From contig PCVY01000028.1 of NCBI GenBank assembly GCA_002787155.1, forward strand, positions 9,478 through 73,477: a stretch of 64,000 bases of DNA, written 5' to 3'. This document shows, in pieces, positions 19,341-47,363 of the stretch; the stretch's first letter is position 1, and every line of letters starts with the position of its first letter. The notes under the pieces are model-generated. The model saw only the letters and a list, made by a program, of their open reading frames with translations. It made no database searches and had not been told where the DNA came from. The stretch is from Candidatus Abzuiibacterium crystallinum (GTDB lineage Bacteria > Omnitrophota > Omnitrophia > Omnitrophales > Abzuiibacteriaceae). The position numbers and the translations under genes are program-made.

Positions 19341-19346
19341 ACAAAG

Positions 19347-20897: not shown

Positions 20898-20898
20898 G

Positions 20899-23034: not shown

Positions 23035-23048
23035 CGCGTGGCCGCCGC

Positions 23049-23384: not shown

Positions 23385-23473
23385 TTAGATTGTTGGTTCA
23401 CTTAGCATTGAAAACACTTAAGCATTTACTAGCAACAAACGATGATATTCTATAGAATAGAGGCGTTTTTTCA

Positions 23474-31109: not shown

Positions 31110-31145
31110 TGGCGAGTCTCACCTTTGCATCGGAATCAAGATGCT

Positions 31146-33310: not shown

Positions 33311-33314
33311 GCTT

Positions 33315-34355
33315 CTATTTTAGTTGACTCCAGCGGATCTGAACATTTTTTGGAATGTCGACACGTGCAATTTTTCCGATGACCTTCTTGTAATCTTTCG
33401 CCGGCACCGCACCTTTGGCAGGACTTGGTCTTTTTACCCAAACCATTTCAGGTTTGATACGGGTGCCTTTCTTAATTGATTTTTCAGAAACAACACTTTC
33501 TCTTGCCCAAGCAACAATTTCTTTTTCTTCGGGGAATATTTTTCGCTCAGCCCCTAAGGCTTGAAAAACGGCGTCGGCTCCTTTCACCAATTCTGTCAAC
33601 TCATGCGGCTCGATGGAAACAGGATGATCCGGCCCTTTTTGAAGTTTATCGAGCGTGTAATGTTTTTCAATCAAGCAAACGCCCAACGCCACACCGCCTA
33701 AAGCTGTATAGATGCCTCTTGAATGATCTGAAAGTCCAACCGGCACTTTAAATAACTCTGCGTACTTCTTAATCAAGCCTAAATTAACAATATGATAGGG
33801 CGTGGGATAAGCAGACACGCAATGTGTCACAATAAGCGGTGTGCCAATTAATTGAATAAGATCAACCGTTTCTTTAATTTCATTGATGGTACACATCCCC
33901 GTCGAAACAATCATGGGTTTGCCTTTGCGGGCAATATGCTCTTGGAGCGGTAAGTTGGTCAATTCACCCGAACCTGTTTTATAAGCCGAAACACCCAATG
34001 CTTCGAGTAAATCCGCACCCTTACGGCTAAAAGGTGTGCACAAATAAAGAATGCCGAGATCTTCGCACAGTTCCTTTAGTTTTTTGTGCTCGGCAATCGA
34101 TAAGTTTGTTTTCTTTAAGGTGTCATAAAGAGGTTCTTCAAAATTAGCCGATTGAGGTGCATCTTTAAGCATTTCATTTTCAAGCACATGGATTTGAAAC
34201 TTAATGGCATCTGCACCCGAAGCATGAGCCGTGTAAACCATTCGTTTAGCCGTTTCAAAATCACCTTGGTGATTTACAGCCGCTTCGGCCACGATAAAAG
34301 GTTTGTGCCCCGGCCCAACCAATCGATTGCCTATTTTGACTGCTTTGATAGCCAC
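33315..34355 (-). CDS. Nonulosonic acid synthase (NeuB/LegI/PseI family) with a C-terminal SAF domain
   Basis: FIVAEAAVNHQGDFETAKRMVYTAHASGADAIKFQ matches NeuB (IAEIGCNHNG…AGADAVKFQ). The protein is 346 aa. It is adjacent to the NeuC-like gene. Confidence 0.8.
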   Translation of the reverse strand: MAIKAVKIGNRLVGPGHKPFIVAEAAVNHQGDFETAKRMVYTAHASGADAIKFQIHVLENEMLKDAPQSANFEEPLYDTLKKTNLSIAEHKKLKELCEDLGILYLCTPFSRKGADLLEALGVSAYKTGSGELTNLPLQEHIARKGKPMIVSTGMCTINEIKETVDLIQLIGTPLIVTHCVSAYPTPYHIVNLGLIKKYAELFKVPVGLSDHSRGIYTALGGVALGVCLIEKHYTLDKLQKGPDHPVSIEPHELTELVKGADAVFQALGAERKIFPEEKEIVAWARESVVSEKSIKKGTRIKPEMVWVKRPSPAKGAVPAKDYKKVIGKIARVDIPKNVQIRWSQLK

Positions 34356-34409: not shown

Positions 34410-35543
34410 TCAATGACTTATCGGCTCTTTTCCAAACCTCCTAAATCCTGCCTCCCAAATCATACAGCCCACATGCCGCCAACTTCTAGGTTCTGCGGCA
34501 ACTAGAAATAAAGATTTCCACGCCGCCCTAAAAAAGGAAAAACGCACACAGTAAAGAAAAAATTGTGCGATTGCCTTATACCGATGCGGCTCATCTTCAC
34601 CTATGACATAACCGAGGCCCCGCTGAAGGCATCGCATCGCTTCGTTTTTCATGCTTAACTTACGGAAACATTTCGCAATTGAAATACAATAAAGATACTT
34701 ATTCGCCATCATGGGATCATAGCTAATGCGCACCATTCCCTGATTAAGTTTTTCGTCGGCTTTTCTTCTTTCGTTATTCTTAATGTTTTGTATCGCTTTC
34801 TCAATCAAAGCATCAACCGATTCTGTAAAGTTTGGCAACGATTGTTTAGAATTTGGCGGAAACTGAAAGAAAATAGAATTGGTTCTATAATGACGCCGAA
34901 CCGGTAAATGAGAACGCACCCTATCTTTTTCTAAAACTATTTCAACTTTGCTGAGCATATTGATTGGCACTTGATTAGCTTCTATCCAATTCCAGACATG
35001 GCGAGCCTCCGGCGTATGTGCCAAGCGATCATGAAAAGCGATGTCTTGCATAAAAATAGCTCCGCTAATTCGCGGAAAAACGTTTTCGATATACCATTTG
35101 GCAAACCATGCTTCATGACAGCTATCTATGAGTAAAAAATCTGCCGTGCTTGGCGCAGATTGGATCGTTTCAACCACGTCGCCCAAATGAACAACGAGTC
35201 TGTTTGTGTCCCAATGGACATTTTGATTATTTCGAATGACAGATTCCGTATCCTGCCCATTTGTTTTGCGTAACAATTCAAACGAATGAACAACCCCTTT
35301 TTGATTTCTTGTTAAAGCTCCTAAAATATAATTGGTAGACCATCCGGCTGCCGGTGAAATTTCAAAAACAATTTCGGGTTTCAATTCTCTAATAGCAAGA
35401 TAAAGCATTTCACCCTCTGTATCGCCAAAAGCAGGCTTAAACCGCTGTTTTGCCATTTTAAAATAAATGTCTCTCAGCTCATCGGCTAACTCATATAGCT
35501 CATCCTGATATTTTGAATATAAAGCCAAGAAATCGATCATCAT
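34410..35543 (-). CDS. Putative methyltransferase-like protein (TylF/CmcI-like fold)
   Basis: KPEIVFEISPAAGWSTNYILGAL resembles the E-x-G…S motif of the TylF/CmcI family. The ORF-track start overlaps the upstream gene by 112 bp, so the start is trimmed here to the ATGATGA junction. Confidence 0.4.
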   Translation of the reverse strand: MMIDFLALYSKYQDELYELADELRDIYFKMAKQRFKPAFGDTEGEMLYLAIRELKPEIVFEISPAAGWSTNYILGALTRNQKGVVHSFELLRKTNGQDTESVIRNNQNVHWDTNRLVVHLGDVVETIQSAPSTADFLLIDSCHEAWFAKWYIENVFPRISGAIFMQDIAFHDRLAHTPEARHVWNWIEANQVPINMLSKVEIVLEKDRVRSHLPVRRHYRTNSIFFQFPPNSKQSLPNFTESVDALIEKAIQNIKNNERRKADEKLNQGMVRISYDPMMANKYLYCISIAKCFRKLSMKNEAMRCLQRGLGYVIGEDEPHRYKAIAQFFLYCVRFSFFRAAWKSLFLVAAEPRSWRHVGCMIWEAGFRRFGKEPISH

Positions 35544-36607
35544 TTTATCGGTAAACCAGCCAACCTCAATTGAATTAGACGAATGAAGAAAATAACTTTT
35601 CTGTACCAAGGCATATTCCGTGCGGTCAGAACACTTGCCAATACTTTGCACAGGTTCATCGGGTTTTTCTTCGCTTCAAAAGACAATGGCCAGCCAAAAG
35701 AATTAAATACGCGCCTGCCAATGCAGCTTTCGATTTGCCTGACATCTTTTTCTGAAAGCTTATCTTTCCAATAAGCAACGCCTTGTGAGGAAACCTGCTC
35801 AAACTGAAAACCGTGCATTGAGTTCCCTTGCCATGGGATGCCTGCTCTGGTCGGCTGAAGTAAGATATTATCCCATGAACTATTAAATGTTTTGACTAAC
35901 ATTTGCATCATTTGCTTAGGGTCGGCAGTTAGCATTTCATAGGTCATAAAAATAAATCGATTCTTACTTGACCCATGAAATCTTTTCTGGCAAGTCACGG
36001 CACACAGCAAGCTTCCGCTCCAATCTGAAAGAAAAGTATGAATGTTAAAATCAGGATCTATTCTCTTGGTTAAAGTTTTTGAGTATGAGTAGAAATTCGC
36101 ACGGGGATCTCTTAGAATATAAACAAATTGCGCTTTCGGAAATAATTTTAGCATCTTATCGATGTACAACTCGTTTAAAGGAGTTTTCTCGACCCAATAA
36201 CGAAATGATTGATTCACTTGACCGGAAACATCTCGATAAGCCAAAAGAAGCGCTTTGAGTAAACCAGCCTCAGAGTAACCGTCTATTTTCCAATAGTTTT
36301 CGAGCGCTTGCTTATATTGATCAAATTGGATCTGCGGATAGTCTACCAAACCAATGTCAGTCGTTTCAGAGGCGCCGATTCTAAAATGTTTGACGCCTGT
36401 GTCTTGGTAAATAGATTCTAAAATCTTTTCCCGTTTGACACCTTTTCTTATCATCGGAAGTAGATCGCCAAAAAAACGCGTTTCTTCCGGCATGACTAAA
36501 AAGTCGGGATGAGAATCCAAGAGGGACAATGTTAACGTTGTCCCCGATTTGGGAAAACCGCAAATAAAAATAGGCGTTAACTGATCAAATGTTTTAAGGG
36601 AATCCAC
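35540..36607 (-). CDS. Sulfotransferase (PAPS-dependent)
   Basis: 5'-PSB motif FICGFPKSGTT. 3'-PB motif ILRDPRANFYS (RDP…S). The protein is 355 aa. Confidence 0.75.
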   Translation of the reverse strand: MDSLKTFDQLTPIFICGFPKSGTTLTLSLLDSHPDFLVMPEETRFFGDLLPMIRKGVKREKILESIYQDTGVKHFRIGASETTDIGLVDYPQIQFDQYKQALENYWKIDGYSEAGLLKALLLAYRDVSGQVNQSFRYWVEKTPLNELYIDKMLKLFPKAQFVYILRDPRANFYSYSKTLTKRIDPDFNIHTFLSDWSGSLLCAVTCQKRFHGSSKNRFIFMTYEMLTADPKQMMQMLVKTFNSSWDNILLQPTRAGIPWQGNSMHGFQFEQVSSQGVAYWKDKLSEKDVRQIESCIGRRVFNSFGWPLSFEAKKNPMNLCKVLASVLTARNMPWYRKVIFFIRLIQLRLAGLPIK

Positions 36608-36612
36608 GGTAT

Positions 36613-37524
36613 TTATTGATTGTTTCCTTGTAAAACAGCAAAACGAACCTGGTCATTCGGCAATCGATCTAATGCTACTTCTTTTTGCCATTGAAAGTCT
36701 CGGGGATACCAGGGATGGCCTGATGTATAGAGAAACATGAGTAAGTATCGATCACTTTTTGTCGGTTTCAAACCTTTGTGATACCCAGAAGTGTCTGCAA
36801 TCACGATTGAATGTTTTTCCCCTGCACAAATTCGCCACTGACTTTCCGGCGCCACTGCAATCATTTTCTCATCTCGAATTCGACCATCTTTTTCTGCCTG
36901 CGCTTGTTTAGCAATACTGCCGCGCGCATGGGTTTTTGGGACGTAACAAAAAGGTCCATTTTCTTTTGTAACGTCATTAAGATAAATAAACACCTTAACA
37001 TTCATCACGTCGATATAATCACGATGCCAATATTGCGTCTCCGCTTCAGCCTGTTGGGTCGGAAAATCATGCCATATGTCAATCGCTCTTAAAAACCCCC
37101 ACATGCCTAAGTAGTCACCCACCATTTGAAGCAGCTCCGGTTGAAGCGCCAATTGAATCGCCGGATGTTCAAAACTTAGCATCTTTGACAAAAACATTTC
37201 TCGATATGCTTTTTCTCCTTTTGTTTGATAAGCGTTCTTTTGAAACGAAGCGACGCTCCTTTTCTGTTCGAGTTCATTCTCTATTTGCTCGAGCAAATGT
37301 TTGCTATGTGACGAGAAAAAATGGTTAACATGCGTACCAACAATACCTTCTTTTCTCAACTCTTGTGAAACCAGTGATAAAGCTGGGCGTTTGCTGGCGC
37401 GGGCATAGGATTGAACGCGTTGGCTGTTAAAACCATGCGACCACACGAAATACGAAATAGGCCGTAGCGCTGGAAAACGTATGATCCCCTGTGCGAAAGC
37501 ATGATATTGAGCAGGAATTGACAT
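36613..37524 (-). CDS. PhyH-family Fe(II)/2-oxoglutarate-dependent oxygenase
   Basis: H-x-D motif (YWHRDYID) and a downstream GPFCYVPKTH, consistent with the PhyH family. The protein is 303 aa. Confidence 0.55.
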   Translation of the reverse strand: MSIPAQYHAFAQGIIRFPALRPISYFVWSHGFNSQRVQSYARASKRPALSLVSQELRKEGIVGTHVNHFFSSHSKHLLEQIENELEQKRSVASFQKNAYQTKGEKAYREMFLSKMLSFEHPAIQLALQPELLQMVGDYLGMWGFLRAIDIWHDFPTQQAEAETQYWHRDYIDVMNVKVFIYLNDVTKENGPFCYVPKTHARGSIAKQAQAEKDGRIRDEKMIAVAPESQWRICAGEKHSIVIADTSGYHKGLKPTKSDRYLLMFLYTSGHPWYPRDFQWQKEVALDRLPNDQVRFAVLQGNNQ

Positions 37525-37543
37525 TTTAATGATCTTTCATAAA

Positions 37544-38491
37544 TTAAATCGGATATTTATAATCTTGTAAATCAAATTGAACGAGTTTCTGCAAATGCTG
37601 ATTACTTTCTTGGTAGTATGCTTTAAGACGCGTCCGCCATTCCGCAGACAAGATAGGCCGCCGTATCCCCATTAACTTTTCCAATCTGGCAATCCCATAA
37701 AACCATGCATAGGGGTTAAAAAACAGCGGCAAAAGTTTCGAACGATCCACAGGTCGTTTCAAAAAACCAGCCGGTTGAAACTCGGTTTTTGAAAAAAAAT
37801 TAAGCCATCGCACATACCGGCAAAAAAGCGGATCGTATCCCCGTCGCACATAAATTTTCATTTTGTCCGTTATTGTGATTGCGGGAACGCTTATCAATTG
37901 ACATATCTGATTACAAAATACTTGGATATTCCTAACCATCAGTTCATAAGGCAGTACTAAGACACGGCTCGCTCCAAAGCGATCTATGTAATATTGAACA
38001 AGTTGGTGATACCGCAAATGATCCAGTCTGAAATCACAATGTAATGTTTTTTGGCCCACAAAATCATTAAAGCGGCATGTCCCGCCGTTGAGGAGGTATT
38101 GCTTGTAAATTGACTCAACCATGTGAACTTGCTCACGCACTAAAATTAAAATCTTGGCTTGATGCAAAACCGCAGAGATACGATCCGCATTTCGCTTGGC
38201 ATCACTCGACCCTTTCCAAGGATTCCCGACCAATCCTTCACTGGAAAGTACAATGGTTTTTGGAGAATCTGATTTTTTAATGTTTGTATTGAAAATTGCT
38301 TGCCACTTGGCCGGTGCAAATTCAAAATCGTTCTCTGTAAAAACCGACTTGAGAAAATCATGAACCCATGGGACAGCGTCTGTGTAACGTTTTCCTAAAA
38401 AAAGGATATCGGGAAGTTGGGGGAAGAATATCTTTTGCAGCCAAGTAGAACCGGCTTTTTGATACCCGATGTGAATCATAAAGTCTGTCAT
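37544..38491 (-). CDS. Sulfotransferase-like protein
   Basis: N-terminal IHIGYQKAGSTWL (5'-PSB-like K-x-G-S-T). LVREQVHMVES (R-x7-S, 3'-PB-like). The protein is 315 aa. Confidence 0.55.
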   Translation of the reverse strand: MTDFMIHIGYQKAGSTWLQKIFFPQLPDILFLGKRYTDAVPWVHDFLKSVFTENDFEFAPAKWQAIFNTNIKKSDSPKTIVLSSEGLVGNPWKGSSDAKRNADRISAVLHQAKILILVREQVHMVESIYKQYLLNGGTCRFNDFVGQKTLHCDFRLDHLRYHQLVQYYIDRFGASRVLVLPYELMVRNIQVFCNQICQLISVPAITITDKMKIYVRRGYDPLFCRYVRWLNFFSKTEFQPAGFLKRPVDRSKLLPLFFNPYAWFYGIARLEKLMGIRRPILSAEWRTRLKAYYQESNQHLQKLVQFDLQDYKYPI

Positions 38492-38511
38492 GACAACAAA
38501 CCTTTCCTATA

Positions 38512-39807
38512 TCATTGAATGACTTGCGAAAAGTCTTGGCCGGAAGGCAATACTAATTTGAATGTTTGTGACACAATGACATGTCCATGTTTGGGTGCTG
38601 GAAAACTGCTGTAACCGGTTTCCCCGCTATCGACCACTTCAAAAAATCCCGCTCGGTCAATCATATCGGTTATTCCGTGATCATCTTTGAACGCTAAATT
38701 CATCCAATACTTTCCGGGAATTAACGGCAGGCGTTTCACAAGACAAACGATCTTACCTCTTGGCGGTGCATCCAAAAATCCGTTTTTCTCCAAATAGTGC
38801 GTCCCGCATGAGAAAATCACTGATCCATTTGTATCAACTATATTCAATACCAGCCTTAACCTAAACAAAGATTGTTTGGATGAGGAATCATACGAAATCT
38901 CAAAATGCGTGTCGGTGCCACTTTGAGGCGGCGCCTGTGGGTCACCTGCCTTCGAAACCTTTATATCAACTGCCCGAACCGCCCCACTGCCGCTTCGATC
39001 GTGACGGTCTTTTAGGGACACTGATGTACTTTTGACTTGAGAATCATCCTTCTGCAAATATTGTTGAATCACATTTTCTGGCAAACCGATTGTTTTAATT
39101 CTGCCCTGTTCTAAATGAACGGCGCTGGTGCAAAGATTTCTGATTGCGCTCATGTTATGGCTGACAAATAAAACGGTTCGGCCGCTGTGAGCTACTGCGC
39201 TTACCTTATCGATACACTTCTTTTGAAATGCAAAGTCGCCAACCGCGAGCACTTCATCAACGAGCAATATCTCCGGATGTAAATGAGCCGCCACTGAAAA
39301 AGCTAACCGGACATACATGCCGCTCGAGAAACGTTTAACCGGCGTATCGATAAATTTTTCAACGCCTGAAAAATCAACAATGGCGTCAAATTGCCTGTCA
39401 ATCTCTGATTTTCTCATGCCGATAATCGCCCCATTTAAGTAAACGTTCTCGCGGCCCGTCAGTTCCGGATGGAACCCGACGCCCACCTCCAAAAGCGACC
39501 CCACTCTGCCTTGGATTTCAGCATGTCCTTCCGTTGGTTCGGTCACACGGGAAAGTATCTTGAGTAACGTAGACTTGCCGGCACCGTTAGAGCCGACAAT
39601 CCCTAATATTTCACCTTTTTTAATTTCTAATGAAATATCCTTAACAGCCCAAACCTCATTGGAACTGGCAGCGGTCATCTTACTCTTCGGACGGAACGGT
39701 ACTCTTAATGTGCCGGCTATAATATCTCGAAGCGCATAATAAGGTTCGCGGGCCCCGATACAATACCGTTTGCCAACACCAGTGATTTTAATTGCAACGT
39801 CACTCAT
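38512..39807 (-). CDS. wzt: Glycan ABC exporter ATP-binding protein Wzt/TagH/KpsT-like, with a C-terminal extension of about 170 aa predicted to be a glycan-terminus-binding domain
   Basis: Walker A GIVGSNGAGKST. Signature FSSGMYVRLAF. Walker B LLVDEVLAVGD. The 431 aa length is typical of Wzt proteins carrying a C-terminal carbohydrate-binding module. Confidence 0.8.
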   Translation of the reverse strand: MSDVAIKITGVGKRYCIGAREPYYALRDIIAGTLRVPFRPKSKMTAASSNEVWAVKDISLEIKKGEILGIVGSNGAGKSTLLKILSRVTEPTEGHAEIQGRVGSLLEVGVGFHPELTGRENVYLNGAIIGMRKSEIDRQFDAIVDFSGVEKFIDTPVKRFSSGMYVRLAFSVAAHLHPEILLVDEVLAVGDFAFQKKCIDKVSAVAHSGRTVLFVSHNMSAIRNLCTSAVHLEQGRIKTIGLPENVIQQYLQKDDSQVKSTSVSLKDRHDRSGSGAVRAVDIKVSKAGDPQAPPQSGTDTHFEISYDSSSKQSLFRLRLVLNIVDTNGSVIFSCGTHYLEKNGFLDAPPRGKIVCLVKRLPLIPGKYWMNLAFKDDHGITDMIDRAGFFEVVDSGETGYSSFPAPKHGHVIVSQTFKLVLPSGQDFSQVIQ

Positions 39808-39810
39808 ATC

Positions 39811-40635
39811 TTAATAAGCAATCCCCAGGCTGTCCCCGGCATACCAGTGATCCAATGGCTCTTCATCCCATTTGATAAATTTCTTGTTCAATTCTTTCGA
39901 AAACTTAAGAAGCTCCTCTGTCTGATTTGCATTATCACTGACCAAAATAGAGCAAGATCTTAATTGGGCTTGGATGGTTTTGTATTCCTCTCGTTCATAT
40001 TCGGCTGCATGATGGCTGTCATGTATAAATAAATCAATCGGCAGCTTAAATTGCCTAAGCAATTCTATCGAATCCCCGTACAGCACTTCTCCAAATTGAG
40101 CATATGGTCCGGTTAATAAATAACCGCCGGATCGATCAATTTCTGTTCCGTAATATCGGCCTAAAAAACCCTCTTGTGAGTTGTTGAACAGTGCTGCGGT
40201 TATCAAACAAGCGCTCAACCCCTTATCAACCCCCGTCTCAACAACAACACGCGGTTTTAATACCCGGGTTAAAATATACCAAGCAACGCGCCTGCCAAAA
40301 CGCGGCACCGGATCCGAAGCGTAACGAACAGCGCTCGTCATTCTAACCTTAATTAAATGCGTCTTCAATCTTTCATCGGTTTCCACTTCTGCCGCAAAGC
40401 GCTGGATTTCTGCGAGAGGCCGGCCAGTCACATCAGCTAACATTTTGATGAGATTCTGCTTGTTGGCAGGCGTAATGTGATAAGTCAGATTATATAACTC
40501 ATTTGAGGTCAAAAGCCACTTGAGGAATTTAAAATTAAGCACCGGAATATATGAACGCATAATTTTGATGCGAAGCGGGATAAGGCACAGCCTTCCTAAA
40601 ATTGGTGTGTTCAAAATATGCTGTTTGAGCGTCAT
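39811..40635 (-). CDS. Putative SAM-dependent methyltransferase (CmcI/TylF-like)
   Basis: VVVETGVDKGLSACLITAAL and a downstream …LFIHDSHHAAEYERE… resemble the CmcI/Methyltransf_24 family. The protein is 274 aa. Confidence 0.45.
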   Translation of the reverse strand: MTLKQHILNTPILGRLCLIPLRIKIMRSYIPVLNFKFLKWLLTSNELYNLTYHITPANKQNLIKMLADVTGRPLAEIQRFAAEVETDERLKTHLIKVRMTSAVRYASDPVPRFGRRVAWYILTRVLKPRVVVETGVDKGLSACLITAALFNNSQEGFLGRYYGTEIDRSGGYLLTGPYAQFGEVLYGDSIELLRQFKLPIDLFIHDSHHAAEYEREEYKTIQAQLRSCSILVSDNANQTEELLKFSKELNKKFIKWDEEPLDHWYAGDSLGIAY

Positions 40636-40643
40636 AAAAATAT

Positions 40644-41954
40644 CTAAGATTGTGAGATACTCATCCGAAAACTATCCATGACCCGCTCTGCTAAAATGCG
40701 GGGCGTGTGATGCTGCTCATAAGTTTGGCGGCCATTTTGACGTATGTGCTGGTTGAGCATGCCATCCGTGACTGCCGAGTAAATGGCACGTGCAATTTCT
40801 TCTCCGGTATCACCCGCTAAAACATTCAGACCCTCTTTCATGTCACTTAACGTGCGGAGACTATTTCGATGAACAATTAAACATAAACCCATCGACCAAG
40901 CCATCACGGTGCGACTGTAAGCGGCTAAGTAACTTCCCGCATTGTTCAAAAGTAAGAAAACATCTCCAGATCTAAGTTCCTGATCCAAATCCGCGACCCA
41001 CCCTCGTAAATAAACACGGGGATGACGGATAACTTTTTCCAACCCCGGGTAAGGCTTCCCTGCGCCAATGATGTGAACCTCATAATCAAGCCCTTTCATT
41101 ATTTTCTCGAGTTCAGGCATGACTTGTGTCAAAAGAAAGTACATCCCTAACGTACTGCCCGTGACACGTAAGTGTCCAATGTGTCCGATAATCTTTATTT
41201 TCCGTTTATGTGCTTTGGACTTATTTGAAATAGTCATACCTTCATCGATCCAAGTAGGGCCTAGTTCTTCAACATTTTGACAACCATTTGTTTTGTAATA
41301 GGCTACATGTGCGGCCGTTGCGGTAAAAATTTTGCTCAAATCCTTCATCAATAGAAGGTGCGCTTGCTCAAAAGAGCGAATCCGCCGCCAGCCAGTCATA
41401 ACCATTAGCCATCCGAGCGGACCATAAAAGAGTTTGTAATCGATTAAACGAGCTTTGCCTGGATCAAAATCGATGTCGCCCTGATAGGCTATTTTAGGAG
41501 CCGAATGATAACCATCACTGGCTGCCACGCCTTCAGGGCTGCCAAAAATAAACAAAGCGTCTGGTTGAAAAGCTTGAATGCGGCTCGTAACTTCTTTTTT
41601 CAAACTGACACTCGGATAGAAATCAGTCAGGCAAATACGCTTGAAAAGGACGCCAAATATGTTTTTGATATGTTTGGCTAATCGCCGCCGCCAGTTTTGA
41701 TTCTGGTTATAATCCTTTGCAAAAAAAACAGGTTCAACGTGAAATTGTTCGCTCTTTAGCTCTTCTAATCGTCTTTGCTCAAAATCGGTCAACTGGTTCG
41801 GATGATAATTATTAAAAATCACCTGTAAGCACACCGTGTGCCCTGCCTGAAGGAATATTTTTAAAAACTCGTTTAATTGAATGTTGATGGCGCTAATGCC
41901 ATTGGTGTGATGACTGATGTGAGGGATATCGCTGGACAGGACAAAAATTCTCAT
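40644..41954 (-). CDS. Putative GT-B fold glycosyltransferase
   Basis: The 436 aa product has a C-terminal half with a GT4-like layout (…HIIGAGKPY…, …VFLLLNNAGSYLAAYSRTVMAWSMGLCLIV…). Located in the glycan operon. Motifs are weak. Confidence 0.35.
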   Translation of the reverse strand: MRIFVLSSDIPHISHHTNGISAINIQLNEFLKIFLQAGHTVCLQVIFNNYHPNQLTDFEQRRLEELKSEQFHVEPVFFAKDYNQNQNWRRRLAKHIKNIFGVLFKRICLTDFYPSVSLKKEVTSRIQAFQPDALFIFGSPEGVAASDGYHSAPKIAYQGDIDFDPGKARLIDYKLFYGPLGWLMVMTGWRRIRSFEQAHLLLMKDLSKIFTATAAHVAYYKTNGCQNVEELGPTWIDEGMTISNKSKAHKRKIKIIGHIGHLRVTGSTLGMYFLLTQVMPELEKIMKGLDYEVHIIGAGKPYPGLEKVIRHPRVYLRGWVADLDQELRSGDVFLLLNNAGSYLAAYSRTVMAWSMGLCLIVHRNSLRTLSDMKEGLNVLAGDTGEEIARAIYSAVTDGMLNQHIRQNGRQTYEQHHTPRILAERVMDSFRMSISQS

Positions 41955-41961
41955 GAGCCCG

Positions 41962-43071
41962 CTACACGGTAGGAATTTCGCTAAACAGACTTTGCCATAT
42001 TTGGTATTCTGTTAGAAAGTCGTGGATCAATTGACGATCCTGATCAGCCATGTTTTTCACGGTCGGTAATTTCTCTAGACTTTTTTTCAACAACTCCTCG
42101 AGAGCACCCAAATAAGTTGCTTCTTTTAAGTCGACTGACCGAAGTAAATCAACGAATGGATCCGTGGCCCGATTGTTCTTCCATTCATCTTCCAAATCTT
42201 TCCAGAGATTGTGCGGGTTCCGCACTTGTCTGACAAGCGGGTGCCCGTACGCAATGACTTCACGCATTTGTTCGGTTAATCGGCAAAGGATAAATGCGGT
42301 CCAAATATCAGCGTTTCTACCGGTAGTAGGCGGCGTAAAATAAACCGGAATAGCGGCGCGCGACAAGGCGGTGTTTTGGTTGTTGAATGACGACCAGGTA
42401 GTCGGATCAAGTGCAAATTGGGGCTCAAAATCTTTTTTCATTCCCACAACACGCAACGGCCAGAAAAGGCGCGTAACCGCATCAACATCAGTGTCTTCTA
42501 AAACAATCCCTTGTTTAGCTGCCACCGTCACCTTGTTCTTCTGCCTGGAAAAAACTTCTTTTTGGTAAAGACGTTTTGACCAAGGAAATCCTCTCGGATA
42601 AAATGGGATACCGTTTGCTTCTTGCACGGCTTCATAAACATTAAACCAACCCGTCTCCGTTTGAATGACATCCATCTCAATCTGACGGCCGACCATCTCA
42701 TAGGCTCCAATAAAGTCTTCTTCAGTAATAAAATTATCGTCATCAATCATTACCACACGTTCACAACCGCCTAAATAAGCCAGGAAATTGCCGATCATTT
42801 TTCGGGCGGCATGATTGACTGGCATCAGTTCCTTAAGCCGCGGATAATCGGCTAATGCTTTATTTTGCTGTTCAATATTTAAATATCTGACGTCTCGCTT
42901 ATATTGCTTTGACAATTTTTCGCAGAAAGGACCTGCTGCTGCCGGTGTTTTTAGATCGCCAATAATCAAAAAAGCAATGTCCTCATGTCCATATCGTATT
43001 GAATTCCGGCAGATTGCTTCTAAAAAGGTAGGAACGCGAATAGTAGTTGTAATTAAAACCGTCTTTTGCAT
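41962..43071 (-). CDS. Hypothetical protein, a possible GT-A-like enzyme (DDD motif)
   Basis: The 369 aa product contains VVMIDDDNFI. There are no other recognisable signatures. Confidence 0.3.
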   Translation of the reverse strand: MQKTVLITTTIRVPTFLEAICRNSIRYGHEDIAFLIIGDLKTPAAAGPFCEKLSKQYKRDVRYLNIEQQNKALADYPRLKELMPVNHAARKMIGNFLAYLGGCERVVMIDDDNFITEEDFIGAYEMVGRQIEMDVIQTETGWFNVYEAVQEANGIPFYPRGFPWSKRLYQKEVFSRQKNKVTVAAKQGIVLEDTDVDAVTRLFWPLRVVGMKKDFEPQFALDPTTWSSFNNQNTALSRAAIPVYFTPPTTGRNADIWTAFILCRLTEQMREVIAYGHPLVRQVRNPHNLWKDLEDEWKNNRATDPFVDLLRSVDLKEATYLGALEELLKKSLEKLPTVKNMADQDRQLIHDFLTEYQIWQSLFSEIPTV

Positions 43072-43081
43072 GTCATGACCT

Positions 43082-43846
43082 CTATTCTAAGGGGGAGCCC
43101 ATCAGTTCTTTTTTTAAGTAAATAAAACTCATTCCAAGCGGCGGAAACGGGAAAAATGGTTCCAAGTAAATTGTCTTTTGATATTGTTCACGGAATTCCG
43201 TCATCGCCTTTTTTTGCCCCCTTTTGGGATCGCCGTAATACATCTGCCAGTCATCAAACGCAATGACAGCGCCATGATTCATCTTGTCTTTAATAAATTC
43301 CAAAGCGTTCTTAGTTGACTCATAATAATCACAATCAAAATATGCTAAAGCGATACCGTTTTTTTCTTGCCACTCATAGTGAGGTAATGTGTCTTGATAA
43401 AAACCTTTAATGGTCGTTACCCGATAAAGATCTCTGCGCATCAATCTTTTAAAAGCTTCTTCACTCATGGAAAATTTCCCCTTTGAGAAACATTTCTGCC
43501 TATCCAAGCCTGACGCTTCAGGTAAGCCCTCAAAGCTATCAAAAGCAAAAAAATGGGAAATGTGATTACGCAAGCCATAGGCAGCAGGCTTGCCCAGCGT
43601 ATTTAAAGCGTAACGCATAGTCACCGCGCCGCAACATCCGAACTCAACATAAACACCGTCTATGTAATTAGCACTCAAATAATTAGCTGTCCAACTAAAG
43701 AAATCAAAACGGTGATCTCGGTTTTTGGCTAATAACGAAGGGACAACCTGCCTTAGACCAAAGCGCGGCATCGGAGTGCCGCGCACGCACAAACGTTTGA
43801 TAAAATCAATCAGGTCTTGATGAATTTGACTTATTATTCGCGACAT
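43082..43846 (-). CDS. TylF/MycF-family (macrocin-O-methyltransferase-like) sugar O-methyltransferase
   Basis: GVYVEFGCCGAVT and AFDSFEGLPE match the TylF family (…EFGV..G.S…, DSFEGFP). The protein is 254 aa. Confidence 0.65.
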   Translation of the reverse strand: MSRIISQIHQDLIDFIKRLCVRGTPMPRFGLRQVVPSLLAKNRDHRFDFFSWTANYLSANYIDGVYVEFGCCGAVTMRYALNTLGKPAAYGLRNHISHFFAFDSFEGLPEASGLDRQKCFSKGKFSMSEEAFKRLMRRDLYRVTTIKGFYQDTLPHYEWQEKNGIALAYFDCDYYESTKNALEFIKDKMNHGAVIAFDDWQMYYGDPKRGQKKAMTEFREQYQKTIYLEPFFPFPPLGMSFIYLKKELMGSPLE

Positions 43847-43863
43847 GAAATTAAGAGTTGATA

Positions 43864-44616
43864 TTACCCGATCTTGCCGTTATTAAAGATTTCTTCAAAT
43901 TGATCTGTGGTCACATATGCTGAGGCAAATGATTGGGTAGCTGCCATTTTCTTTCGGCAAAGTTTCACATCAAATGAAACACGTGGCTGCCCATTTAAAA
44001 GACTGGTTTTGTGAGGGCAGGCACCGTCAAACAAAATCACTTGTCCAATTTGATGTTTCAGTTTTATTTGTTTCATTTTTGGGAGTTTTTCTCCTTGATC
44101 ATATTGATCAAGCGTCTTAAACCATTTCTCTTGAAAAATAGCATCAGGCGGCTCAAAGAGTTCCATTGTGGTATTCGTGACATCTCCAAAAAGCGCCACC
44201 CACACATGTGCAATATCGGCAGGTTCGCCGGACCAAACATCGAGATGAGTTTTAGTGGTAGCGTAGGGTCGGTTTAGATTTTTTTTGTCGGGCATCTTCC
44301 CTGACATCAATCGAAAATTAACCAGACTGAGCGATGTCACCTTATCTAGAATCTTCAACTGTTCCAATAATTTACAGACTCTTTGATGAAAGCGTGCATA
44401 TGACACAAAATTATGCACGCTGATTTTCACAATCGAACCTGCGGTTGCATCGATGTGCATGTCTCCGCGCTCAACTTTCTTCAGGAATGTGGGCATGTCT
44501 CCCATCACCATGCCAGGTGCAGAATCGTGAATTAACACCTCTGCCGCTTGCTGGAGTGCCGTTAACGCTTCTTTATCTAACATTAAAATGCCCAGCAAAG
44601 GATGCAGTAACCGCAT
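43864..44616 (-). CDS. Hypothetical protein, a possible cupin / 2OG-oxygenase-like enzyme
   Basis: The 250 aa product has THLDVWSGE (H-x-D) and a later CPHKT His. This is weak evidence. Confidence 0.25.
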   Translation of the reverse strand: MRLLHPLLGILMLDKEALTALQQAAEVLIHDSAPGMVMGDMPTFLKKVERGDMHIDATAGSIVKISVHNFVSYARFHQRVCKLLEQLKILDKVTSLSLVNFRLMSGKMPDKKNLNRPYATTKTHLDVWSGEPADIAHVWVALFGDVTNTTMELFEPPDAIFQEKWFKTLDQYDQGEKLPKMKQIKLKHQIGQVILFDGACPHKTSLLNGQPRVSFDVKLCRKKMAATQSFASAYVTTDQFEEIFNNGKIG

Positions 44617-44699
44617 TTGGTTTTCACTTGCAACTTTTTAAAACCAATCAAAACGTTCTTCGCGCGTCATGTATGTTGATTGAGCGGCCACCGGCTGCA

Positions 44700-45536
44700 T
44701 CATTTGGCAATCCTTTCAAAGTGACCTAAACGGTCCACTGTCTTCACTAACTTGAATTGACCCGCTGCCTCAATTTCTCGAATGAGCGGTTTCATGTAAG
44801 CGGGTGCATCGGCAAAAGTTCCTTCCCCGGAGCAGTCGTCAAAAAAAACGGCTCCGCCCACGCGGACACGTTTACCAAACCGTTCAAAATCACTTTTAAC
44901 AGCATCGTAAGTATGTTCCCCATCTATGATGACCAAATCAACTGTACCGGTTTCACACTCAACAGTTCGAGAATCTCCGACAAGCACATGAACTTGAAAG
45001 CCAAATTGCCGGCATTTCTCCGTTAATTGCACATCAAAAGGTCGTTTATTCTCCTTGTGAAGACGAGACTCTTTTTCGCCAATATCAATGGACCAAACCG
45101 TTCCTTTTTTACCCATTGCCGCAGCCATTAAAAAGGTAGTGCCTCCCTTGTAGCGTCCGATCTCAATCACTTTTGTTGCTTTCAGGCGCCGCAGTGTATC
45201 AAATAAATAAGCAGCCATACGAATGGTCAAATCCGAAACACCGCTGTTTAAGTTATTGCTTGCATGTAGTCCAACCAAATGCTCAAAACACAAATCATGA
45301 GTGACCGGAATATCAAACGTCAAATGATCCAAATCAGGCGTCCGGTTTAAGAGCGGCCCGACTGTTTCAATACCCAAAGCTAAATCACGCTCGATAAACG
45401 CCCGTGCTAAAAATTTCTGTATAAAGCGGGGTGTGAAGATTTTAAGCATTCGGCGAATTCCTTTTGCCAAACCAAAACGCCACCTATTGATATGATATTT
45501 CAAAGCATTCCACCAAGCATCAGATGACATCGGCAA
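44700..45536 (-). CDS. Class I SAM-dependent methyltransferase (Methyltransf_24-like), a candidate glycan chain-terminating methyltransferase
   Basis: VIEIGRYKGGTTFLMAAAM and IIDGEHTYDAVKSDFERF match the Methyltransf_24 pattern. The gene is immediately downstream of wzm. Confidence 0.6.
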   Translation of the reverse strand: MPMSSDAWWNALKYHINRWRFGLAKGIRRMLKIFTPRFIQKFLARAFIERDLALGIETVGPLLNRTPDLDHLTFDIPVTHDLCFEHLVGLHASNNLNSGVSDLTIRMAAYLFDTLRRLKATKVIEIGRYKGGTTFLMAAAMGKKGTVWSIDIGEKESRLHKENKRPFDVQLTEKCRQFGFQVHVLVGDSRTVECETGTVDLVIIDGEHTYDAVKSDFERFGKRVRVGGAVFFDDCSGEGTFADAPAYMKPLIREIEAAGQFKLVKTVDRLGHFERIAK

Positions 45537-46344
45537 AACTCTTCTCCATGCGTTTAAAATAGTACATTCCGCTCACACAAATAACGCAGGCAATCAACCC
45601 AGAAAAAATGATCATGCCTTGTAATTCATTTGATTGACCAAAAAGTGCCCACCGAAAACCCTCAATGACACCGACCATGGGATTTAACCCATATAAAAAA
45701 CGCCATCCCTCCGGCACCAAGCTGCTTGGATAAGCAATGGGCGTAGCAAAAAACCAAAATTGAATTAAAAATGGAATCGTGTATCTCACATCTCGATACC
45801 TGACGTTCAGTGCGGAAAGCCAAAGTCCGACTCCCAACGCCGTCATAAAAGCTAACACCATAAAGATGGGAAGATATATCACTGAAATCAATAACGGCGT
45901 CTGGTAATACACCATCATGCCGATCAGGACCAGAAATGCAAAAAAGAAATCAACGACGCCGGAAAAAGTGGCTGAAAGAGGCATTGCCAGTCTGGGAAAA
46001 TAAACTTTTGTTACCAGTTGTTGGTTAACGATTAAAGTATTAGCAGATTCTGTGACTGCGTGAGAGAAAAATTGCCAAGGTAATAGCGCGCTATAAGCAA
46101 AAATAGGGTAAGGAATACCGTCAGATGGCATTTTTGCCAAATGACCAAAGATCACGGTGAAAATCACCATCGTTAAGAAAGGCTGTAAGATAGCCCAAGC
46201 GGCACCGATGATGGTTTGTTTATACCTGACTTTGATATCTCGCCACGTCAGAAAAAAAATCAACTCGCGTGCTTGCCATAACTCCTTTAGGTTTAAAGGA
46301 ATCCAGCCGCTGCTTGCTTTGATCGTTGTCATGGATTCTTTCAC
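45520..46344 (-). CDS. wzm: ABC-2 type glycan exporter permease Wzm/KpsM/TagG-like
   Basis: The 274 aa product has 6 predicted TM helices. N-terminal …ELWQARELIFFLTWRDIKVRYKQTIIGAAWAILQP… is typical of ABC-2 permeases. It pairs with wzt in the same operon. Confidence 0.8.
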   Translation of the reverse strand: MKESMTTIKASSGWIPLNLKELWQARELIFFLTWRDIKVRYKQTIIGAAWAILQPFLTMVIFTVIFGHLAKMPSDGIPYPIFAYSALLPWQFFSHAVTESANTLIVNQQLVTKVYFPRLAMPLSATFSGVVDFFFAFLVLIGMMVYYQTPLLISVIYLPIFMVLAFMTALGVGLWLSALNVRYRDVRYTIPFLIQFWFFATPIAYPSSLVPEGWRFLYGLNPMVGVIEGFRWALFGQSNELQGMIIFSGLIACVICVSGMYYFKRMEKSFADVI

Positions 46345-46346
46345 GA

Positions 46347-47363
46347 TTACCGTTCCACTAATTTCTTGTCAAATGAGGCTTCAACAGCTTCGCGCTTCTT
46401 GTTTGAAAAATACCAGTCAATGGTTCGATGTAACCCGTCCATAAATTTTGTTTCAGGCTCCCACCCTAAGAGTTTCTTGGCCATTCGGTTATCCGCAACC
46501 CGGTTTAGCGGACCCGTGGGCATATCAGGCCTTAATTTAATTTCAGCTTGATGTTTGCAATAGCGCAATACTTCGCGAACAGCATCTATGACGCGTGTTC
46601 TTTCGGTGGTACCTAAGTTGATAGCAGTGCCATCGTCAATTTTTTCGGCAGCCAATAGGGTACCCCTTGCAATATCTTTCACGTAAGTCCAATTTCTAAT
46701 TTGTTCACCAGTCCCCCATACCTCAAAAGGATTCTGCTTGATGAATGCTCTGGCAATCATAGCGATCACCGCGTGGTTCTCAACGCCACGCTCGCCGTAA
46801 ACCGTAAAATAGCGGCAGGAAGCCGTCTTGATACCCCATTCGCGGTAATATGCTTTTAAAGTGAGTTCTGCCATTAATTTGGCCCAGCCATACATGTTAT
46901 CTGCATCATAGGGCGGCCCAACCATATCCTCAACGAGATACAATTCTTCCTTCGTGTTGGTTTGCAGGTGATTAGGGTATACACAACCGGAGGAAGCATA
47001 AACAATCTTCTCAACGCCATTGTCACGACAGGCTCCAAAAATGAGTCCGTCTAAAGTCAGGTTGGTCGAACAATCCGCTTGATGTAAATCTACATAGCCT
47101 CTTCCGCCATGCGCCGCCGCCAAATGGATAACGACATCAACCTGTTGCGTGACTTGTTTGGCAACTCCCTCTTCAAGTAAATTTTTTTGAATAAACTCAA
47201 CTTTTTTAGAGGCTATATAAGATTGAATATTTTCGAGCCGTCCGCTGCTTAAGTCATCAACCACCCGCACTTGCGCGCGGTGCTCAATTAACCCATCGAC
47301 AATGTGCGATCCAATAAATGAAGCACCGCCGGTAACTAAAACGCGCTTTTGACTCCAATTCAT
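46347..47363 (-). CDS. NAD-dependent epimerase/dehydratase (UDP-uronate 4-epimerase or decarboxylase candidate)
   Basis: N-terminus VLVTGGASFIGSHIVDGL. The protein is 338 aa. It is immediately downstream of the Ugd-like gene. Confidence 0.65.
   Translation of the reverse strand: MNWSQKRVLVTGGASFIGSHIVDGLIEHRAQVRVVDDLSSGRLENIQSYIASKKVEFIQKNLLEEGVAKQVTQQVDVVIHLAAAHGGRGYVDLHQADCSTNLTLDGLIFGACRDNGVEKIVYASSGCVYPNHLQTNTKEELYLVEDMVGPPYDADNMYGWAKLMAELTLKAYYREWGIKTASCRYFTVYGERGVENHAVIAMIARAFIKQNPFEVWGTGEQIRNWTYVKDIARGTLLAAEKIDDGTAINLGTTERTRVIDAVREVLRYCKHQAEIKLRPDMPTGPLNRVADNRMAKKLLGWEPETKFMDGLHRTIDWYFSNKKREAVEASFDKKLVER

Follow-up and report, generated by a model that had tools for sequence, protein, structure and literature searches.

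The locus studied here, positions 34410-46344 on the minus strand of a 64,000-nt window (the whole stretch of DNA analysed) from Candidatus Abzuiibacterium crystallinum, an uncultured bacterium of the Omnitrophota, is part of a long operon that encodes a surface glycan. This chain probably contains sulfate, methyl groups and a sugar resembling sialic acid. We consider it fairly likely that the product is a lipid-linked, ABC-transporter-dependent (Wzm/Wzt) glycan that is sialic-acid-like, is sulfated and methylated in the cytoplasm and has its export gated by the carbohydrate-binding domain (CBD) of Wzt. This CBD belongs to a clade that is nearly always found beside a sulfotransferase (ST) gene and sialic-acid genes, which hints that the tag marking a chain as "ready for export" may be of a new kind.

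Gene calls were verified against ORF lists and against the calls on an identical metagenome contig; all genes of the locus, like the other features of the string described below, lie on the minus strand. The locus is embedded in a single co-directional, tightly packed gene string (26192-54335; intergenic gaps of at most 83 nt) along which promoters and terminators showed no excess over shuffles. The gene arrangement is not a matter of chance: contigs unrelated to one another show this set of genes again. With soluble STs, methyltransferases and Fe/2OG oxygenases in one such string, the sulfated, methylated glycan proposed in the initial annotation is a reasonable prediction. We also noted that the 64-kb island may hold genes for more than one glycan.

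The exporter consists of the ABC-2 permease Wzm (45520..46332; PF01061 [ABC2_membrane], 73.8 bits) and the 431-aa Wzt (38512..39807). Wzm has at least four hydrophobic segments, is 53-63% identical to the Wzm proteins of relatives and shows weak similarity to both the Wzm/RfbD and the KpsM NCBIfam models, with the Wzm model giving the higher score. In Wzt, an ATPase portion (residues ~1-252, with a Pfam ABC_tran match at 55-186) is followed by the CBD (residues ~255-431), of which residues 269-399 match Wzt_C (Pfam; E = 3.6e-14, 53 bits versus a cut-off of 30). The best solved relative is Aquifex aeolicus Wzt (E = 2e-69), the alignment extends into the CBD, and the AlphaFold model has a pLDDT of 91. 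The discrete C-terminal domain that had been read from the sequence is thus borne out, and the further claim of a Wzm/Wzt exporter whose CBD genuinely reads a cap is likewise supported. KpsT-type ATPases are not known to carry a Wzt_C domain. The presence of this domain here and the better score of the permease with the Wzm model, together with the failure of domain calls to reveal any KpsD or KpsE (OPX/PCP) homolog in the window, make it improbable that the locus yields an anionic exopolysaccharide (EPS; sulfated and sialylated), free or capsule-like, rather than an O-antigen or glycoprotein glycan. Such an EPS would be similar to the sulfated capsule of Vibrio sp. KMM 8419, which is of the KpsMT type and whose cluster unites an ABC transporter, cysNDC and STs (PMC11641403), and it would be consistent with the KpsC-like enzyme described below, of a kind typical of group 2 capsules, and with the sulfated, sialylated EPS common in Nitrospira-bearing sludges (PMC10483923).

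The window CBD falls into a distinct clade and reaches 35-42% identity only with CBDs from loci that carry NeuB. When the CBD alone was used for tblastn, 11 loci scored 91-148 bits and every other Wzt locus at most 53 bits; all long loci among the 11 carry NeuB and a KpsC-like gene. Eight clade contexts were compared (L084, L086, L090, L091, L092, L097, L175 and the window). In all eight, the genes around wzt include those for NeuB, NeuC and a KpsC-like transferase, and NeuA is present except in L097 and the window. An ST (Sulfotransfer_3) gene directly adjoins wzt in seven of the eight, window counted, with at least three non-orthologous ST subfamilies recruited to this position. L092 has no ST and instead carries a Methyltransf_24 gene next to wzt, so sulfate cannot serve as the ligand for every member of the CBD clade. 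As background, 80 GTDB Wzt loci contained an ST-like ORF in two cases and NeuB in four (Fisher p = 4e-8 for ST and 8e-9 for NeuB, clade versus GTDB loci, values that ignore phylogenetic non-independence).

Directly downstream of the locus are the NeuB, NeuC and KpsC-like genes (29421-34355), the strongest conserved link, which the initial annotation had missed. The NeuB-family nonulosonic acid synthase (33315..34355; PF03102, 249 bits) is closest to the NCBIfam model NeuB_NnaB (338 bits, under the equivalog cut-off) and is 70-72% identical to NeuB of L090, L091, L097 and L175. NeuC, a hydrolysing UDP-GlcNAc 2-epimerase (32159..33310), scores well above its threshold (TIGR03568, 409 bits versus 236). 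The SDR dehydratase or epimerase at 31146..32159, whose nearest model is LegB-like, has orthologs in L091 and L175 (52-64% identity), and the AsnB-type glutamine amidotransferase at 27440..29395, called from domain and NCBIfam matches, has a 52%-identical ortholog at the same position in L090. Between them lies the KpsC-like protein, a putative CMP-ulosonic-acid glycosyltransferase (29421..31109; PF05159, 28 bits versus a cut-off of 20). Its family profile matches only KpsC structures (E = 2e-6), across an invariant K-x-HPA motif, and its orthologs in relative contexts are 35-49% identical; those in the seven other contexts of the CBD clade align at 37-49% identity and are 544-586 aa long, but exceed 1,100 aa in L084. 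No CMP-nonulosonate synthetase was detected in the window plus ~19 kb of flanking contig (~83 kb in all; tblastn E ≤ 1).

These genes bear on what the CBD reads. One tentative possibility is that the cap is the nonulosonic acid itself, added by the KpsC-like enzyme as a direct analogue of the Klebsiella O12 β-Kdo cap, with sulfate and methyl groups internal and without a role in export gating. However, the gene beside wzt is an ST in seven contexts and a methyltransferase in one, not the KpsC-like gene, and the repeated recruitment of unrelated ST subfamilies to this position also argues against such a cap. The cap that we would guess at first is a terminal unit, at the nonulosonic acid or adjacent to it, that is sulfated, or methylated where a methyltransferase replaces the ST.

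Two STs are encoded in the locus. The first (35540..36607; PF13469 [Sulfotransfer_3], E = 6e-28) belongs to a nonulosonic-acid-associated subfamily in which the PAPS-binding motifs are invariant: PKSGTT does not vary, nor does R166 of an R166-(D-P-R) motif, in which D167, P168 and R169 are at least 90% conserved; it is 41% identical to Nitrospira orthologs adjoining wzt. The second (37544..38491), directly downstream of wzt, carries the motifs YQKAGST and LVREQ, exceeds the cut-off for both Sulfotransfer_3 (PF13469, 31.8 bits) and Sulfotransfer_1 (PF00685, 29 bits) and represents an orphan subfamily with no homolog in any of the loci compared. Two clear STs and a probable third had been predicted. 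Both of the former stand, being above the Pfam cut-offs with motifs present, but profile and phmmer searches of all ORFs of at least 70 aa in the window returned no third. Transmembrane segments were found in none of the STs, the methyltransferases or the KpsC-like protein, which fits modification ahead of export.

The surroundings of the 35540 family were surveyed in 33 metagenome loci of at least 8 kb. NeuB was present in 25, a KpsC-like gene in 16, APS kinase in 16, NeuA in 14 and Wzt in 10; one locus (L133) combines two STs, an ATP-sulfurylase/APS-kinase fusion, NeuB and NeuA. These associations with NeuB and with dedicated PAPS genes, as well as the position of an ST directly beside wzt in 7/8 clade contexts versus 2/80 in the background, make it most unlikely that the STs act on protein tyrosines or small molecules instead of a glycan and that their place in the locus is incidental. 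The best solved-structure matches of the 35540 protein are indeed the protein-tyrosine sulfotransferases TPST1 and TPST2 (E = 5e-11), but these matches mostly span the common PAPS-binding motifs. A check for the PAPS-synthesis genes that the initial annotation had tied to sulfation was negative for this contig: neither APS kinase nor ATP sulfurylase was detected in the same ~83 kb (window plus ~19 kb flanking; tblastn E ≤ 1), whereas relatives carry PAPS-synthesis genes in-cluster.

The four methyltransferases already assigned to the locus all exceed Pfam gathering scores. Three are of the SAM-dependent Methyltransf_24 type (PF13578): 44700..45530 (61 bits), which has a 53%-identical ortholog directly upstream of ST-wzt in L175; 39811..40635 (48 bits), directly upstream of wzt; and 34410..35543 (38 bits), with a C-terminal extension of ~180 aa that has no Pfam match. 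The fourth is a TylF-type O-methyltransferase (43082..43846; PF05711, 53 bits; PF13578, 34 bits), and the additional gene noted at 25395 encodes a Methyltransf_11 protein. As to the predicted oxygenases, the PhyH-family Fe/2OG dioxygenase at 36613..37524 passes its cut-off (PF05721, 35.8 bits versus 22; WHRD motif) and has a 38%-identical ortholog adjoining the ST in Nitrospira loci. The ORF at 43864..44616 does not qualify as a firm call; sub-threshold matches (TIGR04324, E = 4e-4; PF13759, E = 0.09), an HLD...H...RVS pattern (HxD...H) and the UniProt name "phytanoyl-CoA dioxygenase" mark it as a probable 2OG-Fe(II) oxygenase.

Further glycan genes fill the string. Between wzm and wzt lie a GT-B glycosyltransferase (Glyco_trans_1_4; 40644..41954; PF13692, 38 bits), with homologs in the same interval in L175 (28% identity) and L091 (24%), and a weakly assigned putative glycosyltransferase (41962..43071; STELLO, E = 3.6e-4, below the cut-off; DDDN motif). 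The last gene of the string, encoding a GT4 glycosyltransferase (26192..27433), has orthologs in L084, L089, L090, L092 and L097 (44-52% identity). Upstream of wzm are an NAD-dependent epimerase (46347..47363), a UDP-glucose/GDP-mannose dehydrogenase (47360..48697), an uncharacterised GT-like protein (48702..49643), a GT4 glycosyltransferase (49644..50684), an STT3-family GT-C protein (50689..53190; PF02516, 63 bits) and the GT4 glycosyltransferase that opens the string (53187..54335). The 48702 protein matches no Pfam model or PDB entry, yet its family comprises 4,120 representative clusters, frequently occurs in fusions with GT2 or GT1 domains and has members, 35-41% identical, in 18 of the 33 ST loci. 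Domain calls recognised neither an initiating phosphoglycosyltransferase nor an O-antigen (WaaL-type) ligase in the window.

The STT3-family protein had led to the suggestion that the exported sulfated, methylated glycan is N-linked to proteins and resembles a haloarchaeal N-glycan rather than LPS. Consistent with this, the gene lies in the same string, its start overlapping the GT4 gene at 53187 by 4 nt, its product scores above the Pfam cut-off with the catalytic-type motifs SYDND and IAE retained, and no WaaL-type ligase was recognised in the window. However, WWDYG, the motif that binds the sequon's Ser/Thr at +2, is replaced by WFDPG (in SWFDPGY) in this protein and by WWPPG (in SWWPPGY) in the paralog at 57644, and the host is a bacterium, not an archaeon. 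STT3 homologs were also absent from the 33 ST loci of at least 8 kb, the 80 GTDB Wzt loci and six relative contexts (L087-L092/L097) by tblastn, and from the Pfam tables of the remaining relative contexts; the STT3 link is therefore not conserved. The haloarchaeal likeness, drawn solely from the STT3 genes, is accordingly weak, and N-linkage appears doubtful. The glycan could be destined for lipid A-core, or for protein via the in-string STT3-like enzyme.

Collectively, these data suggest a pathway in which glycosyltransferases, those of GT4 and GT1 among them, would assemble the chain on the cytoplasmic side. NeuC and NeuB, with the LegB-like SDR and the AsnB-like amidotransferase, would make a sialic-acid-like nonulosonic acid, which the KpsC-like, HP-motif enzyme may transfer to the chain. 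Two PAPS-dependent STs, four SAM-dependent methyltransferases and one or two Fe/2OG hydroxylases, all soluble, are predicted to decorate the glycan before export, and only when the Wzt CBD had read the modified non-reducing end would Wzm/Wzt export the chain.

Parts of this pathway have precedents. The Legionella pneumophila O-antigen is a poly-legionaminic acid exported by Wzm/Wzt, pairing a nonulosonic acid with this exporter as in the window, and the Geobacillus S-layer glycan is ABC-dependent, receives an O-methyl cap and then passes to an oligosaccharyltransferase, combining a capped glycan with transfer to protein; neither is known to be sulfated. The terminator genes wbdD and wbbB of E. 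coli O8/O9a and Klebsiella O12 adjoin wzt. The O8/O9a system couples Wzm/Wzt-CBD to the WbdD terminator, but the window CBD is only 14% identical to its CBD (structure 2R5O), no homolog of the WbdD kinase/methyltransferase is present in the window, the candidate modifiers are PAPS-dependent STs and Methyltransf_24 enzymes, and nonulosonic-acid genes belong to the module. In Klebsiella pneumoniae O12/Raoultella terrigena, the Wzt CBD (structure 5HNO) reads a terminal β-Kdo added by WbbB; in the window, the sugar would be a nine-carbon NeuB product rather than Kdo, the transferase is KpsC-like with no WbbB homolog recognised, and STs are added. Known caps are methyl, methyl-phosphate and Kdo, and the CBD of A. 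aeolicus Wzt reads a 3-O-methyl sugar cap (PMC9445017). The Aquifex WzmWzt (7K2T, 8DKU, 6O14, 8DKY) is the closest solved sequence relative of the window Wzt, and the window likewise has several O-methyltransferase candidates; however, the CBDs are ~20% identical, and no nonulosonic-acid or ST genes have been described for Aquifex. The sulfated capsule of Vibrio sp. KMM 8419 (PMC11641403) also derives from an ABC-transporter-type polysaccharide cluster with STs, but uses KpsMTDE machinery without CBD-gated export or nonulosonic acid, and the window itself has no PAPS genes. Finally, the synechan xss cluster of Synechocystis 6803 (PMC8205485), although it follows the Wzx/Wzy pathway in a cyanobacterial host, without a CBD or nonulosonic acid, directs the synthesis of a surface polysaccharide with two in-cluster STs of different subfamilies, as seen in the window.

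The genes at 34410-46344 sit within a run of 26 minus-strand genes, extending from 54335 down to 26192, in which intergenic gaps are at most 83 nt and several starts and stops overlap. On the basis of gene calls and Pfam matches, the content of the window is almost wholly glycan biosynthesis. The GC content (about 43%) is flat at 0.41-0.46 throughout, giving no signal of horizontal transfer across the window. Rfam and tRNA scans of the window returned no match, and promoter and terminator scans gave counts no higher than those for shuffled sequence and so did not provide operon boundaries. Given that the island is flanked by type IV pilus/T2SS genes, an S41 protease and an F-type ATPase, and that the identical Wzt protein is found in the MAG of Candidatus Abzuiibacterium crystallinum (Candidatus Omnitrophota), the host is a bacterium.

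In the direction of transcription, the first gene of the interval 34410-46344 encodes Wzm (45520-46332, minus strand), which has multiple hydrophobic segments and matches ABC2_membrane (PF01061) at 73.8 bits. Between wzm and wzt, on the same strand, are genes for a Methyltransf_24 enzyme (44700), a probable oxygenase of 250 aa (43864), a TylF-type methyltransferase (43082), a putative, weakly STELLO-like glycosyltransferase (41962), a Glyco_trans_1_4 glycosyltransferase (40644) and a second Methyltransf_24 enzyme (39811). Wzt itself (38512-39807, minus strand; 431 aa) carries an ABC_tran domain at residues 55-186 and a Wzt_C domain at residues 269-399 (Pfam, E 3.6e-14), and is followed on the minus strand by a sulfotransferase (37544), a PhyH dioxygenase (36613, Pfam), a second sulfotransferase (35540) and a third Methyltransf_24 enzyme with a C-terminal extension (34410). 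These assignments bear out the exporter with a C-terminal glycan-binding extension proposed in the initial annotation, as well as its methyltransferases, all four of which (34410, 39811, 43082 and 44700) exceed their Pfam gathering scores. The same annotation had also counted two clear sulfotransferases with a probable third, and two or three oxygenases. Two sulfotransferases stand, but a third was searched for across the window and not found; PhyH 36613 likewise stands, while 43864 is only a probable oxygenase, all of its 2OG-oxygenase matches being sub-threshold. The observation as a whole is confirmed and its interpretation partly supported; the conserved NeuB/NeuC/KpsC-like module described below had been overlooked.

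The best solved relative of Wzt is that of Aquifex aeolicus (E 2e-69), and the alignment continues through the C-terminal carbohydrate-binding domain (CBD). A scan of GTDB genomes with Wzt gave no relative above 47% identity over the full length. Both exporter parts known from the CBD-gated, ABC-transporter-dependent export of the O9a, O12 and Aquifex type are present, namely Wzm and a Wzt with a C-terminal Wzt_C jelly-roll domain. Using Pfam and NCBIfam, no capping protein of the WbdD or WbbB type was recognised in the window; the candidates for a capping enzyme are the wzt-adjacent sulfotransferase, the Methyltransf_24 enzymes and the KpsC-like enzyme. Likewise, no window ORF of at least 150 aa had a Pfam match to a phosphoglycosyltransferase or to Wzy_C (WaaL-type ligase). 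ORFs 3026 and 5638 are polytopic and have no Pfam match.

Sulfotransferase 35540 matches Sulfotransfer_3 at 99 bits (Pfam cut-off 27), and its PAPS-binding motifs (5´-PSB and 3´-PB) read PKSGTT and RDPR, with PKSGTT and R166 unchanged in all 24 homologs compared and D167, P168 and R169 shared by at least 90% of them. For 37544, which is above the cut-offs for both Sulfotransfer_3 and Sulfotransfer_1 (31.8 bits against 27 and 29 against 22), the corresponding motifs, YQKAGST and LVREQ..S, were read by inspection and give weaker motif support than those of 35540. On one otherwise identical metagenome contig (L002, JGI 3300004196, 12265-13195, compared with window positions 36613-37524), PhyH 36613 is called as a mere 52-aa remnant, so that the dioxygenase may be disrupted there through strain variation or misassembly. 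A KdoO-like role in ulosonic acid hydroxylation was considered for this protein and set aside as speculation, its PDB sequence matches being weak and to unrelated PhyH hydroxylases.

The same gene string encodes enzymes of nonulosonic acid metabolism. NeuC is a full NCBIfam equivalog match (409 bits against a cut-off of 236). NeuB scores 249 bits with Pfam and 338 bits with the NeuB_NnaB model, below the 400-bit cut-off of the latter; it is nearer the Neu5Ac synthase model than PseI, and the neighbouring SDR is nearest LegB (NCBIfam), so the exact nine-carbon sugar is not fixed by these matches. The KpsC-like protein 29421 exceeds the Pfam Capsule_synth cut-off (28.4 against 20), a K-x-HPA motif is invariant in the profile of seven members of its family, and this profile, compared with PDB, matches structures of the KpsC beta-Kdo transferase only, with E about 2e-6 and across the K-x-HPA motif. 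Based on this family membership, it is plausible that 29421 uses a CMP-activated ulosonic acid donor. The CMP-nonulosonate synthetase NeuA (CTP_transf_3) was absent from the about 83 kb formed by the window and its flanking contig DNA (L173 and L174) when searched with five NeuA queries (tblastn E ≤1), and no APS kinase or ATP sulfurylase turned up at the same threshold in the window or in the roughly 19 kb of contig beside it. Genes elsewhere in the genome would therefore have to supply both activated donors. Among the relative contexts read, locus L097 alone has no NeuA adjoining the module.

We found much of this gene set conserved in relatives. Sulfotransferase 35540 shares 41% identity with its nearest relatives, one of which carries a Nitrospira annotation. 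Loci of this Nitrospira type have the order KpsC-like, B12-radical SAM, NeuA, NeuB, NeuC, CBS, APS kinase, Wzt, sulfotransferase, PhyH and GT4, and their Wzt is also 431 aa long with a Wzt_C domain. Seven window proteins have orthologs in them: KpsC-like 29421 (47% identity), NeuB (43%), NeuC (39-44%), Wzt over residues 1-422 (50%), sulfotransferase 35540 (41%), PhyH 36613 (38%) and GT4 26192 (48%). The closest database homologs of Wzt (51-55% identity) come from four further contexts (L090, L091, L092 and L175), and in all four wzt is flanked by genes for NeuA, NeuB, NeuC and an SDR, together with a protein of 544-577 aa that is 37-47% identical to the window KpsC-like protein. A Sulfotransfer_3 gene lies immediately upstream of wzt in three of the four; in L092 its place is taken by a Methyltransf_24 gene. 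The layout of L175 is a near-copy of the window (Wzm, methyltransferase, oxidoreductase, GT1_4, Methyltransf_24, sulfotransferase, Wzt, acetyltransferase, NeuA, NeuB, NeuC, SDR and KpsC-like), with identities of 53% for Methyltransf_24 against 44700, 72% for NeuB, 58% for NeuC, 64% for the SDR and 47% for the KpsC-like protein.

The association extends to the CBD alone. When only this domain was used in tblastn, matches of 91-148 bits (35-42% identity) were obtained to 11 loci only, all of them sulfotransferase/NeuB loci, whereas the next-best Wzt loci reached at most 53 bits and lacked NeuB, sulfotransferase and KpsC-like genes. Comparing the eight contexts of this CBD clade, including the window, with 80 background GTDB Wzt loci, a sulfotransferase was present in 7/8 (directly beside wzt), while the background loci, searched with ten diverse sulfotransferase queries, carried one in only 2/80 (Fisher p 4e-8), and NeuB in 8/8 compared to 4/80 (p 8e-9), p-values that ignore shared ancestry and come from few contexts (n=8). 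Pooling the three Nitrospira-type loci gives 5/6 for the sulfotransferase (p 3.5e-6) and 6/6 for NeuB (p 4.5e-7). The wzt-adjacent sulfotransferases belong to at least three non-orthologous subfamilies, which argues for repeated recruitment of sulfation at this position and not for one inherited gene pair. Since CBD identity among the database homologs forms a continuous gradient, we drew no conclusion about the ligand from clade-specific residues.

A survey of the 35540 family, in which metagenomes were scanned with a sulfotransferase alignment, gave 80 loci, 33 of them at least 8 kb long. Among these 33, NeuB was found in 25, a homolog of window ORF 48702 in 18, a KpsC-like gene in 16, NeuA in 14, Wzt in 10 and STT3 in none; in-cluster PAPS genes took the form of an APS kinase (16/33) or a Sat-CysC fusion. 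One locus that was read in detail (L133, 2979-14832) has the order PseB-like, RmlD-like, NeuB, GT4, NeuA, 48702 homolog, GT2, two sulfotransferases and an ATP-sulfurylase/APS-kinase fusion. This locus and the similar L104, L110, L113, L114, L130, L160 and L164 combine a family sulfotransferase with NeuB, NeuA and APS kinase and are without Wzt; nonulosonic acid and sulfation are therefore paired beyond the ABC-transporter pathway as well. The recurrent ORF 48702-49643 (minus strand) encodes 313 aa with invariant N-x-D, D-N-W and H-Q-x-H motifs and has neither a Pfam model nor a PDB match by profile search; a single-sequence structure model (pLDDT 42) was unusable. Its family comprises 4,120 representative clusters at E ≤1e-3 (1,416 at E ≤1e-30) and is often one domain in multi-glycosyltransferase proteins of 1,000-4,000 aa, with GT2, GT1, TPR or methyltransferase domains.

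The initial annotation had also likened the product to haloarchaeal sulfated N-glycans, given an STT3-type oligosaccharyltransferase, and this likeness proved weak. STT3 50689 belongs to the gene string described above, and its paralog 57644 (29% identity) is found at a distance of 4 kb; both are above the Pfam cut-off for PF02516 (63 and 67.6 bits). As read by inspection, the paralogs keep the acidic catalytic motifs SYDND/WYDTD (DxD-type) and IAE/VAE (TIxE-type, in loop EL5), and may well be active GT-C transferases. The WWDYG motif, which binds the +2 Ser/Thr of N-X-S/T, is replaced in both, with SWFDPGY in 50689 and SWWPPGY in 57644 compared to SWWDYGY in human and fungal STT3, for which reason we do not class them with the canonical N-X-S/T oligosaccharyltransferases. 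STT3 was found in none of the relative loci examined. A haloarchaeal Agl-type pathway has an archaeal host and an AglB with intact WWDYG; here the host is bacterial and the motif degenerate, leaving the comparison as an analogy at best. The C-terminal regions of the two paralogs (about 250-350 aa) match no Pfam model. The gene for 57644 (57644-60421, minus strand) lies inside a type IV pilus/T2SS-like cluster (neighbours at 56304-57308, 60782-61486, 61855-63931 and positions 1-10000 of the flanking L173) that contains an MshE-type ATPase with PilZ, T2SSF, a T2SSG-type pseudopilin, PilM/N, a PilO-like protein, a TPR protein, GT2, STT3, T2SS-K and an S41 protease. Given these neighbours, the acceptor of 57644 may be a pilin or pseudopilin.

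Further gene groups lie elsewhere in the island and beside it. The plus-strand block at 17760-26195 encodes three PMT_2 (ArnT/PMT-like GT-C) proteins, a B12-binding radical SAM enzyme (668 aa), a 155-aa ORF and a Methyltransf_11 enzyme, with a fourth PMT_2 just outside the window (L174, 16421-18325), pointing to a glycosylation or modification system of its own in the periplasm. On the minus strand, 13367-17588 encodes alpha and beta subunits of a thiamine-dependent E1 dehydrogenase, a DegT aminotransferase and a GHMP kinase, and a strong PhyH dioxygenase (E 2e-26) is found nearby at 10610; this unusual set is possibly for a branched or keto-modified sugar. To the left of the window (L174, 12354-15647), a 1,097-aa protein with TPR repeats and a spermine/spermidine-synthase-like domain adjoins GT2 and PMT_2 genes.

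In CBD-bearing Wzt systems, chains are completed and receive their cap in the cytoplasm; the cap is bound by the CBD, and export is restricted to chains that bear one. Methyl, methyl-phosphate and Kdo are the caps known so far (PMC9445017). The genes present, the fold of the CBD and the conservation of the neighbourhood lead us to infer that GT4, GT1 and other glycosyltransferases would build the glycan on a lipid carrier, that the KpsC-like enzyme would add a nonulosonic acid, and that the glycan would then be sulfated, methylated and hydroxylated by enzymes without transmembrane segments, with the resulting modified terminus read by the CBD of Wzt. The genes wbdD and wbbB adjoin wzt in the model systems. 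The sulfotransferase occupies the corresponding place beside wzt, which is why we lean slightly towards a cap that includes sulfate (or, in L092, a methyl group). In the alternative version, the nonulosonic acid would itself be the cap. Either a sulfate-bearing or a nonulosonic cap would extend the rule of three caps (PMC9445017), with a defined and testable CBD clade. A more specific version of the sulfate-bearing cap, which we put forward as a speculative and rather unlikely reading, is that the CBD clade, which occurs in Omnitrophota, Nitrospira and further uncultured lineages, recognises a new class of cap, a sulfate ester at or adjacent to a terminal sialic-acid-like residue, installed by the wzt-adjacent sulfotransferase; the exported chain might here pass to the divergent STT3 with its lost N-X-S/T-reading motif, and this would be the gene set behind the sulfated, sialylated glycoconjugates of environmental biofilms. 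If so, sulfate would join methyl, methyl-phosphate and Kdo.

Chemical surveys show sulfated and sialylated glycoconjugates to be widespread in the EPS of granular sludge, where the bacterial pathways are stated as not known and reference sulfotransferases gave few hits (PMC10483923). The module, whose relatives include Nitrospira-assigned loci, offers candidate genes and a search signature for these glycoconjugates: sulfotransferase, NeuB, NeuC, NeuA and KpsC-like transferase, joined by APS kinase in roughly every second locus and by Wzm/Wzt-CBD in a subset. For Omnitrophota, a phylum with no cultured member in the present data, the module also offers a first look at how envelope glycans are made. 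Neither a sulfate or nonulosonic cap nor the present gene module is described in the open-access literature searched, an absence that is not proof of novelty. In an Aeromonas salmonicida O-antigen cluster, an uncharacterised sulfotransferase-domain ORF lies between wzt and wbbB, although sulfate was not observed in this O-antigen (PMC4483657). Co-location of PAPS-synthesis genes with sulfotransferases has been described as a hallmark of sulfated polysaccharide clusters (PMC11641403); among these, the Synechocystis xss cluster is of the Wzx/Wzy type (PMC8205485) and the Vibrio capsule cluster of the KpsMT type (PMC11641403). The present locus, by comparison, is a variant of the known CBD-gated ABC-transporter pathway, distinguished by a CBD clade tied to nonulosonic-acid genes and a wzt-adjacent sulfotransferase.
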